Source of the DNA: Oscillospiraceae bacterium
GTDB taxonomy: Bacteria > Bacillota > Clostridia > Oscillospirales > CAG-272
DNA length: 64,000 nucleotides
Direction of reading: 5' to 3'
Assembly (NCBI GenBank): GCA_015064095.1
Contig: SVSW01000001.1
Coordinates: forward strand, 64,709 to 128,708
The notes below the pieces were generated by a model that saw nothing but the letters and a program-made list of their open reading frames with translations, made no database searches and was not told the DNA's origin. The translations under genes were made by a program, and so were the position numbers. Positions 4,561-6,827 of the stretch are shown here, piece after piece (the stretch's first letter is position 1; each line of letters starts with the position of its first letter).

Positions 4561-6827
4561 TTATTGCTTTGTTTACGCAGCTCGCTGCGGCGGATCTTTC
4601 CGCTGACCGTCTTCGGCATCTCATCGAGGAACTCAACGATCCTCGGATATTTATAGGGTGCTGTATGTGATTTAACGTACTCCTGAATTTCTTTTTTCAG
4701 TGCGTCCGTTCCCTCTTTTCCCTTGACAAGAACAACGCTCGCCTTGACGACCTGACCGCGTACCGGATCGGGCGCGGCAGTAACGGCACATTCAAGCACA
4801 TAGGGCAGCTCCATGATAACGCTCTCGATCTCGAACGGTCCTATGCGATAGCCCGACGACTTGATAAGATCGTCCGTACGTCCGACATAGTGGAAATACC
4901 CGTCCTCATCGCGCCATGCGGTGTCGCCCGTATGATAATAACCTCCGTACCAAGCCTCGTCCGTGTGCTCTTTATCATTATAATATCCGATAAACAGACC
5001 CGGCGTTTTGCCAAGCTCTGTTTTGATGCAGATCTCACCGGTATCACCGTCCGCGACCTCATTGCCGTCACCGTCAATAAGATGAACGTCATAAAGCGGC
5101 GAGGGCTTGCCCATCGAGCCGGGCTTCGGCGTCATGCCGACGAAGTTTCCGACGATAACGGTCGATTCCGTCTGTCCGAATGCTTCCATAAGCGCAAGGC
5201 CGGTGGCACGCTTCCACTGCTCATAGACCTCCGGATTGAGCGCTTCTCCTGCGATAGTTGAATATTTGATCGAAGAAAGATCATATTTCGAAAGATCTTC
5301 CTTTATAAAGAATCTGTACATTGTCGGCGGTGCACAGAAGGTCGTTATACCGTATTTTGCGAACATCGGAAGGATATCGTCCGCATGGAAGCGGTCGAAA
5401 TCGTATACGAAAAGTCCGCCCTCGCAGAACCACTGCCCGTAAAGCTTACCCCACATTGCCTTTGCCCAGCCGGTATCGGAGATCGTCAGATGCAGGCCGT
5501 TCGGGTCAACATTGTGCCAAAAATGCGCCGTCGGATAGTGCCCGAGCGGATATTTGTGTGAGTGAACGGCGATCTTCGGATAACCCGTTGTGCCCGAGGT
5601 AAAATACATCAAAAGAGGATCGTCCCCACCGACAGGTACGCGCTCGAGCTTTGAGCGGAACATCGGCAGCTCGGCATCAAAATCGTGCCAACCCTCGCGC
5701 GAGCCGTTGACTATTATTTTCGTCTTGACCGTGGGTGATTTTTCGAGTGCAAGCTCGATCTGATGTGCCACGTCGCCGTCCGCGGTCGCAACGACGGCCG
5801 AAACGCCTGCGGCGTTAAAGCGATACTCAAAATCGTGTTCAACGAGCTGATTCGTTGCGGGGATCGCTATCGCGCCGAGCTTGTTGAGCGCCATCATTGA
5901 GAACCAGAACTGATAGTGGCGCTTGAGAACGAGCAGAACGCGATCGCCCTTGCCTATGCCGAGCGAACGGAAATAGTTAGCCGTTCTGTTCGATTCGCGG
6001 CTTATATCGTCAAATGTAAATCGGCGCTCCTTTTTATCGCTCGAAATATGAAGCAGCGCGAGCTTTTCGGGCTTCTTTTTGGCTATCTCGTCGACAACAT
6101 CATACGCAAAATTAAAGTTATCGATATTTTTAAAGCCGATTCCGTTGAAAATGCCGTTTTCGTCCGTCTTTGTTTCGATGAACTTCTCTGCAACGGGTGC
6201 GATCGGCGCAACTGCTGCCGGCTTTATCGAATGGTCAAAGACAGATCGCTCATCGCCCTTAACAACGATCGCATAAAACTCGCAATCATCGCCGCCCGTG
6301 GCGATCATGCCGTGAGGCTCGGAGCTGTTGTAAAGCGCGGTATCTCCGGGGCGGAGTATCTCCGTAATACCTCCGACGACGAGCTTGAGCGCGCCCTTTA
6401 CGACTATATCTATCTCCTGACCTGCGTGAGTTGAGAGCTTGATCGGGTTTCTCTGCTCCTCCTCGCTGTATGCCGCACGAACAAGGAACGGCTCGGCGAT
6501 CTTGTCACGGAAAAGAGGGGCAAGGCTGGTGTAATCGAACTCCGAACGGCGATCGACCAACGTTCCGTTTCCTGCGCGAACGACCGATAGCGTGCGAAGA
6601 TTAGGGCTCTTACCCTCGATAATATCGCTGACGTCAACACCGAAGCGCAGAGCGCATTTATGTATAAATGAAATACTGAGGTCGACCTCTCCCGCCTCGC
6701 AGGCAAGATACCTCTCGGTGGTCAGACCCGTTTCGACCGCCATCTGCTCGGGCGTGATGTCGAGTATCTCGCGCATATCCCTTATTCTTTCGGGTATTTG
6801 GCGAATTTTACTGCTGTTTAAATCCAT
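4557..6827 (-). CDS. fusion protein: N-terminal XRE-type HTH + cupin domain, C-terminal AMP-forming acyl-CoA synthetase (medium-chain/ACSM-like), copy 1
   Basis: ORF 4557..6851. I set the start at MDLNSSKIRQ (ATG 6825-6827), which has a GGAAGGAG RBS. The N-terminus has an HTH (ITPEQMAVETGLTTERYLACEAGE) and a cupin (GQEIDIVVKGALKLVV..PGDTALYNSSEPHG). The C-terminus has the adenylate-forming motifs YFTSGTTGYPK, GQTE, YHTGD, GRTDDLIKSSGYRIGPFEIE and SGKIRR. Confidence 0.85.
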   Translation of the reverse strand: MDLNSSKIRQIPERIRDMREILDITPEQMAVETGLTTERYLACEAGEVDLSISFIHKCALRFGVDVSDIIEGKSPNLRTLSVVRAGNGTLVDRRSEFDYTSLAPLFRDKIAEPFLVRAAYSEEEQRNPIKLSTHAGQEIDIVVKGALKLVVGGITEILRPGDTALYNSSEPHGMIATGGDDCEFYAIVVKGDERSVFDHSIKPAAVAPIAPVAEKFIETKTDENGIFNGIGFKNIDNFNFAYDVVDEIAKKKPEKLALLHISSDKKERRFTFDDISRESNRTANYFRSLGIGKGDRVLLVLKRHYQFWFSMMALNKLGAIAIPATNQLVEHDFEYRFNAAGVSAVVATADGDVAHQIELALEKSPTVKTKIIVNGSREGWHDFDAELPMFRSKLERVPVGGDDPLLMYFTSGTTGYPKIAVHSHKYPLGHYPTAHFWHNVDPNGLHLTISDTGWAKAMWGKLYGQWFCEGGLFVYDFDRFHADDILPMFAKYGITTFCAPPTMYRFFIKEDLSKYDLSSIKYSTIAGEALNPEVYEQWKRATGLALMEAFGQTESTVIVGNFVGMTPKPGSMGKPSPLYDVHLIDGDGNEVADGDTGEICIKTELGKTPGLFIGYYNDKEHTDEAWYGGYYHTGDTAWRDEDGYFHYVGRTDDLIKSSGYRIGPFEIESVIMELPYVLECAVTAAPDPVRGQVVKASVVLVKGKEGTDALKKEIQEYVKSHTAPYKYPRIVEFLDEMPKTVSGKIRRSELRKQSNK

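Follow-up and report, generated by a model that had tools for sequence, protein, structure and literature searches.

What does a repressor-like module do when it is attached to a metabolic enzyme? The question is raised by two genes on the minus strand of the window (the whole 64,000-nucleotide stretch of DNA that was analysed), here called paralogs A and B. In each, a single frame runs from an XRE-like five-helix domain through a cupin barrel and a disordered linker to a complete AMP-forming acyl-CoA synthetase that resembles MbcS, a methylbutyryl-CoA synthetase known from Staphylococcus aureus. A sequence-only reading had proposed that such proteins are bifunctional enzyme-regulators able to repress their own gene or others. 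The parts of the two genes are as follows.

4557..6827, minus strand: paralog A gene (756 aa plus stop); XRE-like helix-turn-helix (HTH), cupin, linker, acyl-CoA synthetase; Val-type
6612..6812, minus strand: XRE-like five-helix domain of A, residues ~6-72 (HTH_19 below cut-off, AF2 helices)
6258..6602, minus strand: cupin barrel of A with leading strands, residues ~76-190 (Cupin_2 38.9 bits, AF2 pLDDT 95-98)
6414-6428, minus strand: cupin motif H134-x3-E138 of A
6309-6317, minus strand: cupin motif P171-H172 of A
6183..6257, minus strand: linker of A, residues ~191-215 (poorly conserved, low confidence)
4560..6182, minus strand: acyl-CoA synthetase of A, MbcS-like, AMP-forming, residues 216-756 (Pfam, NCBIfam, motifs)
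34607..36901, minus strand: paralog B gene (764 aa plus stop); architecture as A; Ile-type
36680..36880, minus strand: XRE-like HTH domain of B, residues ~8-74 (HTH_19, HTH_3 and HTH_31 just below cut-offs)
36326..36670, minus strand: cupin barrel of B, residues ~78-192 (Cupin_2 42.1 bits; HKGQE 136-140)
34610..36238, minus strand: acyl-CoA synthetase of B (DTGWGK 464-469, with Gly where A has A455)

Each gene is one unbroken open reading frame, 4557..6851 for A (likely ATG start at 6827, preceded by the ribosome-binding site GGAAGGAG) and 34607..36982 for B (likely ATG start at 36901), and the full-length products are 59.8% identical. Pfam recognised Cupin_2 in A at residues 131-187 (38.9 bits) and in B (42.1 bits), both above the cut-off of 27.2, together with AMP-binding (A, residues 246-616, 214 bits; B, 206 bits) and AMP-binding_C (A, residues 666-744, 79 bits; B, 79 bits). 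The HTH was below threshold in both proteins: HTH_19 matched residues 13-73 of A with 20.4 bits against a cut-off of 30.2, and the scores of B for HTH_19 (25.0), HTH_3 (22.1) and HTH_31 (21.7) were each just below their cut-offs. AlphaFold2 placed a five-helix bundle at residues 3-71 of A (helices 3-21, 26-33, 37-44, 52-62 and 66-71), followed by the cupin at 111-189. Because a single-sequence search of the PDB with the N-terminal 230 aa returned marginal matches only, a family profile was needed; this matched the 434 repressor, SinR, DdrO, ClgR and 1y9q, the last of which, annotated as an HTH_3 regulator, was its best PDB sequence match. An XRE-type HTH was accepted despite the sub-threshold scores because relatives exceed the Pfam cut-offs for HTH_3 (up to 43.9 bits) and HTH_19, the model contains the bundle and the profile matches XRE repressors and 1y9q. 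The earlier description of the first ~200 residues (6230-6827 and 36286-36901) as an XRE-type HTH plus cupin, joined in frame to a complete AMP-forming synthetase, is thereby borne out, except that of the four Pfam domains it expected (HTH_3, Cupin_2, AMP-binding and AMP-binding_C) the first stays under the threshold in A and B.

The same fusion was found in 95 copies in other Clostridia genomes, and the architecture recurs in at least 115 fused cluster representatives (62-97% identity). This excludes a frameshift artefact, as the sequence-only reading had anticipated, and the domain fusion is genuine and widespread in nature. In assemblies chosen as one genome per species, the module itself turned up in at least 596 stretches; the 80 loci examined come nearly all from metagenome-assembled genomes of Clostridia, many from gut, faecal or rumen samples. 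Neglectibacter timonensis SN17 (locus L013) is a carrier that has been cultured. Databases label these proteins merely "AMP-binding protein", and a literature search for the HTH-cupin/acyl-CoA synthetase architecture found no paper. Neighbouring genes are unrelated housekeeping genes, a second paralog, or genes for acyl-CoA synthetases and 2-oxoacid:ferredoxin oxidoreductase (VOR). Intermediate-length homologues were considered as other fusions and discarded, most being contig-truncated fused proteins. Across 97 fused proteins, mean pairwise identity is 0.56 in the HTH and 0.62 in the cupin, within a range of 0.56-0.84 for the domains, versus 0.22 in the linker; judged by this difference, the N-terminal module is under clear purifying selection. 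In the AlphaFold2 model of A, linker residues 192-209 have a pLDDT below 50 and no docking of the module onto the synthetase is evident.

The module also has free-standing homologues of ~190 aa, which are 45-51% identical to it and share its invariant residues. Their genes lie, in 7 of 10 distinct contexts, 2-118 nt upstream of an acyl-CoA synthetase that is 50-63% identical to the synthetase part of A, and the split loci often adjoin a VOR operon. In a clade that lacks the T-box, the synthetase gene lies directly downstream at nearly all of 82 loci, at least 53 of which are linked to a CbiA-like/ferredoxin/VOR operon. Comparison of these loci shows that in related Clostridia the module exists as a small separate protein, whose gene immediately precedes that of the orthologous synthetase, and that A and B carry it in fused form; the likeness to free-standing XRE-cupin regulators noted earlier gains substance from such neighbours. 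Two free-standing members (loci L007 and L091) are located upstream of a GH31 gene with no adjacent synthetase, so a synthetase in cis is not needed for the module to function. A Sir2 gene adjoins the module in L007 and in a further locus, L050, and not in L091; three loci are too few for any conclusion on this link.

The enzyme part carries all the signatures of its superfamily. In A these are SGTTGYPK (411-418), DTGWAK (451-456, including A455), GQTE (551-554), YHTGD (631-635), SSGYRIGP (657-664) and SGKIRR (742-747); the ANL core motifs and the catalytic Lys in SGKIRR are all invariant in the family. With every catalytic motif kept, the synthetase is, as far as motifs can tell, catalytically intact. 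The best NCBIfam match is MbcS (448.4 bits for A, 432.4 for B), whose model spans the synthetase part alone (residues 241-754 of A); its equivalog cut-off of 850 is not reached, and by these scores A and B are related to MbcS and are not equivalogs of it. MbcS activates 2-methylbutyrate and isobutyrate and does not activate isovalerate (PMC10026030). This substrate range fits the specifier codons of the T-box leaders that precede both genes.

6869..7087, minus strand: T-box leader of A, specifier GUC (Val) (Rfam RF00230, 105.8 bits)
7093..7121, minus strand: promoter of A, TTGACA (7116-7121), 17 nt, TATACT (7093-7098); no dyad symmetry
36952..37169, minus strand: T-box leader of B, specifier AUC (Ile) (RF00230, 84.5 bits, local search)
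37177..37205, minus strand: promoter of B, TTGACA (37200-37205), 17 nt, TATAAT (37177-37182)

The leader of A is above the RF00230 gathering score of 93, and that of B is below it (E 5.8e-19 in the local search). Most homologues likewise have a T-box core ahead of the gene, and the specifiers called were 38 Ile, 39 Val and no Leu, so that Ile and Val are the sole specifiers here. Protein clustering agrees perfectly with the specifier, separating a Val-type group, which contains A, from an Ile-type group, which contains B. Among the fused proteins, one position alone is universally specific for the two groups, namely residue 455, beside W454, which is Ala in 39 of 39 Val-type and Gly in 38 of 38 Ile-type proteins. 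The rule breaks in a more distant split locus (L001), where A455 goes with an AUC specifier. Amino-acid synthesis is the role that T-box control and VOR linkage point to here, in contrast to MbcS, which works in fatty-acid priming.

In the cupin, H134, E138 and H172 are invariant, likewise R93, D162 and S168, and HppE, PuuR and SutR have an H..E...H to which the triad aligns. A residue that tracks the Val/Ile division was found neither in the cupin pocket nor elsewhere in the module, and the cupin ligand is therefore probably common to both paralogs. B has PHDEAA where the family has a near-invariant PHGMIA, the sole such case among the 97 fused proteins.

The reading that fares best, with a probability only somewhat short of even, is that the module acts on the synthetase as an accessory domain that binds a ligand or a metal, transcription being left to the T-box. 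A module of ~190 residues, tethered by a floppy linker of ~25 residues to a short branched-chain acyl-CoA synthetase, would act at the protein level (as a sensor, in oligomerisation or by gating) and tune the attached enzyme; it would be no classical repressor. The T-box would set transcription in response to uncharged tRNA-Val for A and uncharged tRNA-Ile for B. A would activate isobutyrate and B 2-methylbutyrate, and a VOR-type oxidoreductase would then convert the CoA esters, by reductive carboxylation, into the keto acids of valine and isoleucine. The selection on the module, the position of the split homologues upstream of the synthetase and the link to VOR operons are all consistent with this scheme. 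So is the chemistry of the HTH, which is acidic throughout the family: net charge is -6 in A (residues 8-72) and -5 in B, with means of -4.7 for fused and -6.1 for free-standing proteins, and a set of 79 free-standing cluster representatives averages -5.0 with none positive. Over the same columns, where the module has -5 to -7, PuuR has +3, SutR +5, the 1y9q fragment +4 and HppE -4. The would-be recognition helix, helix 3, is rich in Glu, Asp and hydrophobic residues (its positions are mostly V/E/L, E/D/A and E/Q/D, and vary) and the usual Ser, Thr, Gln, Arg and Lys readers are missing. The fold is thus present and conserved, its electrostatics are atypical, and a target site was not found at the promoters searched. 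The fold matches to enzymes of the HppE type also favour an accessory role. Against it, net charge is an indirect proxy for DNA binding, the AlphaFold2 model has the module undocked, and some free-standing members stand beside GH31 instead of a synthetase. Relatives pass the HTH_3 and HTH_19 cut-offs, the profile matches the 434 repressor, SinR, DdrO and ClgR, and one T-box-less lineage has a perfect palindrome at its -10 box. Further, the majority of proteins that combine an XRE HTH with a cupin act as transcription factors and repress metabolic genes in their neighbourhood (PMC7901475), and the split loci match that arrangement exactly.

This last comparison leads to the rival that survives next, a trigger enzyme, which is the less probable of the two and yet a live alternative with several points in its favour. 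Here a dimeric fusion protein would bind DNA, and sensing of a pathway metabolite by the cupin would either release it or strengthen the binding. It would control its own gene or unlinked ones, the VOR operon being an example. Exactly this domain order is found in the XRE-cupin local repressors (PMC7901475), among them PuuR and SutR of E. coli and ErfA, PauR and PsdR of Pseudomonas, in which an N-terminal XRE-type domain also precedes a cupin with the H-x-G-x-E...P-H motif. As described for these regulators (PMC7901475), the free-standing relatives of ~190 aa stand beside a metabolic gene, being first in an operon with the synthetase or divergent from the VOR operon. The conservation of the HTH, the Pfam scores of relatives and the match to 1y9q agree with DNA binding. 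In contrast to the known regulators, the module here is fused to an enzyme, its HTH is ~10 charge units more acidic than those of PuuR and SutR, its helix 3 is without the usual readers, and a palindromic operator was not found at the promoters. Helix 3 is also alike in the Val and Ile paralogs, with no residue specific to either group.

The search for palindromic operators near both window promoters, a check that the earlier proposal had itself named, came back negative. The best inverted-repeat arm there is only 3 nt (A) and 4 nt (B); the sole inverted repeats of the window are an upstream terminator and the T-box core, none being reported at the promoter of A. Alignment of 86 homologous promoters on their -35 and -10 boxes, with enumeration of shared inverted repeats, revealed just an A tract, TTGACAA and TGTGnTATAAT, and an operator-like dyad, conserved or enriched, was not found among them. 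The recurrent inverted repeats were T-run/A-run pairs only, explained by upstream terminators that abut UP-like A tracts, such as the one at 7135-7166 in the window. A small excess of per-locus dyads over dinucleotide shuffles disappeared once the -35 and -10 boxes were held fixed (mean best arm 4.56 nt versus 4.59 nt in shuffled sequences). In tandem pairs, the -35 box of the second gene begins a few nt past the stop codon of the first, which leaves no room upstream of that box for an operator.

Isolated palindromes were seen only in some T-box-less split lineages. The clearest, TCGCAACGTTGCGA, is a perfect 14-bp palindrome beside the -10 box of lineage L004 and counts for DNA binding there; as a family operator it was rejected, since it is missing from the window and limited to near-identical contigs. 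In locus L092, CTACAATAGG-N5-CCTATTGTAG was likewise rejected: related repeats of the form CTACAATR..YATTGTAG are restricted to loci with a divergent VOR operon, so that two back-to-back -10 boxes explain them better. A third element, TACAAT-GGAAAACTTTTTC, belongs to another T-box-less subgroup and is not present in the window. AT-rich dyads, read by eye, overlap the -10 box at both GH31-linked loci and speak for a trigger enzyme. A one-to-one fusion with an abundant metabolic enzyme would be an odd dosage for a repressor.

Enzyme-regulator fusions are well established in BirA, PutA and NadR, in which, as in the present proteins, a metabolic enzyme, adenylate-forming or other, shares one polypeptide with a domain of a DNA-binding type. 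BirA differs in having a winged HTH on a biotin ligase related to class II aminoacyl-tRNA synthetases, instead of an XRE HTH and cupin that a disordered linker connects to an ANL-superfamily synthetase, and its operator and corepressor are known, whereas an operator was not found here. FadD1 of Pseudomonas aeruginosa, an ANL acyl-CoA ligase as well, has been reported as a non-canonical transcription factor that binds a fatty-acid signal and promoter DNA (PMC12754631). It has neither HTH nor cupin, its DNA binding being ascribed to a leucine-zipper-like stretch in the AMP-binding domain, and it is not homologous to the HTH-cupin module. Less likely again is the fuller version in which the protein, under T-box control, would catalyse the first step of branched-chain-acid salvage and, in addition, sense a metabolite and bind DNA. 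T-box-controlled synthesis of a DNA-binding fusion would then relay tRNA charging to other promoters; if true, a riboswitch signal would reach unlinked promoters without a T-box of their own, for example those of the VOR operon, transporters and aminotransferases. The idea of a bifunctional enzyme-regulator is thus partly supported, by the domain layout and the catalytic motifs; its DNA-binding, self-repressing half is no longer the favoured reading, given the lack of dyads at the promoters, the acidic HTH and the HppE-like fold.

That fold underlies a third and improbable explanation, according to which the helical domain and the metal-cupin are themselves an enzyme, as in HppE, Psf4 and HEPD, and work on the acid, acyl-adenylate or acyl-CoA that the attached synthetase handles, perhaps as an epimerase or by editing straight-chain acids that were activated in error. 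HppE, Psf4, HEPD and MPnS were the top Foldseek matches (E 7e-14 to 1e-8), alongside 1y9q, and have in common with the module a fold of two domains and a 2-His-1-Glu site. HppE can be aligned with the family profile along the entire module (E 1.3e-6), H-x-G-x-E and P-H included, and likewise has an acidic HTH-like domain with an ...E-N-G-E motif; in the HppE-type enzymes the domain equivalent to the HTH is not a DNA binder. The invariance of the triad and of R93, D162 and S168 would suit an active site, and obligate pairing with one enzyme would suit a second catalytic step. However, the triad was rejected as a sign of catalysis because the repressors PuuR and SutR have the same one, and the similarity to HppE is limited to ~19% identity and a TM of ~0.5 despite a Foldseek probability of 1.0. 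No cupin residue follows the C4/C5 substrate difference, and the route from acid to acyl-CoA, 2-oxoacid and amino acid requires no extra step. HppE-type chemistries require O2 or H2O2, whereas the hosts here, Clostridia of gut and rumen, are presumed to be anaerobic. Host lifestyle differs, and so does the genetic context, with acyl-CoA synthetase, T-box and VOR in place of phosphonate clusters; a phosphonate-biosynthesis context was not seen at the module loci. Finally, that the fusion is a sequencing or assembly frameshift, or the module a decaying, functionless remnant, to which the sub-threshold HTH scores in the window and the PHDEAA of B might point, has a negligible chance in view of the unbroken frames in both paralogs, the fused copies elsewhere and the invariant residues all along a module far better conserved than its linker.

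A requirement for branched-chain acids is a classical observation in rumen bacteria. The genes described here, with their Val and Ile T-boxes and VOR linkage, are candidates for encoding the enzymes that activate isobutyrate and 2-methylbutyrate on their way to valine and isoleucine in anaerobes of gut and rumen, and the A455/G455 difference may be a simple predictor of C4 versus C5 substrate choice. The module could be an XRE-cupin repressor fused to its own target enzyme, the first of its kind, or, alternatively, the second case, after HppE, of a "regulator" fold recruited for work at the protein level. Either answer would refine the annotation of HTH-cupin proteins across thousands of genomes.

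The two paralogous genes of the window, A and B, encode proteins of 756 and 764 aa that are 59.8% identical from end to end. In both, an N-terminal module of ~190 residues, an XRE-like helix-turn-helix (HTH) followed by a cupin, is joined through a linker to an MbcS-like acyl-CoA synthetase. The gene boundaries are as follows:

4557..6851, minus strand: uninterrupted ORF of A (ORF listing)
ATG at 6827, minus strand: likely start of A, with GGAAGGAG ahead of the ATG
34607..36982, minus strand: uninterrupted ORF of B (ORF listing)
ATG at 36901, minus strand: likely start of B

The in-frame fusion claimed by the sequence-only reading (module at 6230-6827 and 36286-36901) was confirmed by the ORFs, Pfam and AlphaFold2. 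The domain content it predicted was recovered for Cupin_2 (38.9 bits in A and 42.1 bits in B, cut-off 27.2) and for AMP-binding and AMP-binding_C, strong in both proteins, but not formally for the HTH, as HTH_19, HTH_3 and HTH_31 match about residues 13-74 with scores slightly below their cut-offs in A and B. The HTH assignment is nevertheless secure, because relatives exceed the Pfam HTH cut-offs and AlphaFold2 predicts five helices (3-71), followed by the cupin (111-189), a low-confidence linker (192-209) and the synthetase from ~212. Modelled alone, the module reached a mean pLDDT of 88.5. All core motifs of the ANL enzymes, with the catalytic lysine (SGKIRR) among them, show no variation across 59 aligned homologues. 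The module is under purifying selection; mean pairwise identity is 0.56 in the HTH versus 0.22 in the linker. Residues 173-178 of B (window 36368-36385), directly after a putative metal-binding His, read PHDEAA, a variant seen in B only among 97 fused proteins, 88 of which carry PHGMIA; this could be a true divergence of the B cupin or a local compensated frameshift.

The fusion is real, conserved and widespread, and no characterisation of the HTH-cupin-synthetase architecture was found in the searchable literature. At least 115 cluster representatives (62-97% identity) show the four-part architecture in 745-800 aa and are named, if at all, "AMP-binding protein". A module profile run against one-genome-per-species assemblies matched at least 596 stretches, from which 80 loci were kept. 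Nearly all are Clostridia metagenome-assembled genomes (Oscillospiraceae, Acutalibacteraceae, Ruminococcus, Christensenellales), many of gut, faecal or rumen origin, and one named species among them is Neglectibacter timonensis SN17. The fetched loci contained 119 copies of the module, 95 of them fused, 13 split and 11 running off a contig end; the recurrence of the same architecture in these fused copies and in the cluster representatives speaks against an artefactual fusion. A and B are monocistronic genes separated by 30 kb. In ~30 loci of other genomes, two fused paralogs stand in tandem, ~400 nt apart, the Ile-type before the Val-type (classes named after the T-box specifier codon; L021, L023, L024, L041, L043, L044, L049, L051, L052, L077, L082, L085, L087 and others), and each gene of the pairs with a called T-box motif has its own promoter and leader. 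Four loci (L028 705-3209, L033 269-3313, L036 851-3340 and L074 1035-3641) hold an Ile-type fused gene without its own T-box, ~30-60 nt downstream of an ORF of at least ~830 aa with an AMP-binding-type C-terminus; the N-terminal part of this ORF, unscanned, looked like a sugar-phosphate-isomerase-type barrel. Among the cluster-search proteins, P0373 (401 aa) carries, ahead of the module, a cytidylate kinase domain at residues 3-211; this arrangement may be a genuine fusion or a gene-calling run-on. P0251 (1002 aa, 11 repeats) and P0301 (703 aa, 8 repeats) are built of XRE-type HTHs in tandem; it was the HTH portion of the profile that picked them up, and they bear no relation to the synthetase system.

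Residues 1-220 of A also retrieved many free-standing proteins of ~188-197 aa (45-51% identity). Free-standing and fused forms have practically all conserved residues in common, namely R14, R19, Y40, E44, G46, DFSFTF, AEPFLV, H134-x-G-Q-E138-x-D140, GD162, S168 and P-H172-G-M. In seven of ten distinct genomic contexts, the free-standing gene lies 2-118 nt upstream, on the same strand, of an acyl-CoA synthetase gene whose product shares 50-63% identity with the synthetase portion of A. In a GC-rich clade lacking the T-box, the synthetase follows immediately in nearly all of 82 loci, and at least 53 of these (among L094-L173) show linkage to a CbiA-like gene, a gene for a small 4Fe-4S ferredoxin and those for a VOR-type 2-oxoacid:ferredoxin oxidoreductase of three subunits, the VOR genes being placed downstream within one operon with the pair or upstream in divergent orientation. 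By gene context, T-box-less split pairs with this linkage are found at L004 8474-11898 and L092 485-3904. Module and synthetase clearly belong together as a split/fused ("Rosetta stone") pair. Two of the three synthetase-less free-standing genes adjoin a Sir2-family deacylase gene (L007 5197-5934, L050 7081-7830); the third, L091, has none nearby. Sir2-family enzymes reactivate acetylated acyl-CoA synthetases.

The specificity of A and B can be approached through their leaders and one residue of the synthetase:

6869-7087, minus strand: T-box leader of A, specifier GUC, above the Rfam gathering score
36952-37169, minus strand: T-box leader of B, specifier AUC, 84.5 bits, E 5.8e-19, below the gathering score
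5463-5465, minus strand: A455 of A
35498-35500, minus strand: Gly at the equivalent position of B

Callable specifiers in the 97 fused genes were 38 Ile (ATC), 39 Val (GTA/GTC/GTG) and no Leu, and protein clustering separated the two types with zero exceptions, so that specifier and protein subgroup are concordant. The sole position fixed differently between the types follows the pocket residue W454 of the synthetase: Ala in 39/39 Val-type and Gly in 38/38 Ile-type proteins. It is likely a C4 versus C5 substrate determinant, and the pairing of the smaller residue with the larger acid would fit such a pocket role; the more distant split locus L001 breaks the rule, as it pairs Ala with an AUC specifier. 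The best NCBIfam model for A and B is MbcS, with scores far short of the equivalog threshold. MbcS acts on 2-methylbutyrate and isobutyrate but hardly on isovalerate (PMC10026030). MbcS likeness, specifiers, clustering and residue 455 together suggest that A would activate isobutyrate and B 2-methylbutyrate, and that the CoA esters would then undergo reductive carboxylation, giving the keto acids that correspond to Val and Ile.

Elsewhere in the window, two ORFs downstream of an ABC-transporter cluster gave zero Pfam matches at E <= 1e-5, and the anticodon loop of a tRNA gene, read by eye as CUUGAAA, suggests tRNA-Ser(UGA):

45529-48354 and 48373-51999, plus strand: two large ORFs side by side, of 941 and 1208 aa
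16499-16584, minus strand: tRNA gene with a long variable arm, 53.9 bits

How the module acts can be read in several ways. Tentatively preferred is that of an accessory domain working at the protein level. Less probable is a trigger enzyme that binds DNA and possibly passes the T-box signal on to unlinked genes. This idea draws on XRE-cupin local repressors, which have the same layout, lie beside the metabolic genes under their control and, as dimers, bind palindromes (PMC7901475); the conservation of the HTH relative to the linker and the match of the family profile to genuine repressors also favour it. However, the palindromic operators expected near both promoters were not found, either in the window, where the best inverted-repeat arm measures 3 nt at A and 4 nt at B, or in 86 homologous promoters. 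In an alignment of these promoters anchored at the -35 and -10 boxes, conservation is confined to an A tract, TTGACAA and TGTGnTATAAT. Inverted repeats recur only as T-run/A-run pairs, which arise at sites where an upstream terminator abuts the A tract (window 7135-7166, for example). Core promoters show no dyad excess: the best arm averages 4.56 nt, compared with 4.59 nt in shuffles that held the -35 and -10 hexamers fixed. In tandem pairs, moreover, the second promoter starts a few bases past the first gene's stop codon.

Candidate palindromes do occur in T-box-less relatives. The L004 lineage has a perfect 14-bp palindrome next to the -10 box, confined to near-identical contigs and absent from the window, as is a TACAAT-GGAAAACTTTTTC element conserved in another subgroup; neither was retained as an operator. 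The 10+10-bp repeat of L092 was likewise rejected: such repeats are limited to loci with a divergent VOR operon and each arm contains TACAAT, so they are better explained as two back-to-back -10 boxes. Two GH31-linked free-standing genes both show, by eye, AT-rich dyads across the -10 box. Some free-standing members may thus bind DNA, on weak, lineage-limited hints that provide no evidence on the fused proteins.

The chemistry of the HTH also argues against DNA binding. In the alignment columns that correspond to A residues 8-72, the family is acidic (net charge -5 to -7; mean -5.0 and none positive in 79 free-standing cluster representatives). The values there are +3 and +5 for the proven repressors PuuR and SutR of E. 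coli K-12, +4 for the 1y9q fragment and -4 for HppE. The usual base-reading positions of the recognition helix are mostly V/E/L, E/D/A and E/Q/D; they vary among orthologues and show no difference between the Val and Ile paralogs. The invariant stretch specific to the family is instead located in helix 4 and ahead of it (D49-F-S-F-T-F...C58-A59). The nearest structural neighbours of the module are HppE, Psf4, HEPD and MPnS, together with 1y9q, and the family profile aligns to HppE across the whole module. The HppE domain equivalent to the HTH is not known to bind DNA. A catalytic cupin is improbable; the His-x3-Glu...His triad cannot discriminate between the models, since the enzyme HppE and the repressors PuuR and SutR share it with the family. 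An artefact or relic is barely credible for so recurrent a fusion. The accessory-domain reading would have the module bind a ligand or metal and tune or organise the attached synthetase, and transcription would be left to the T-box.
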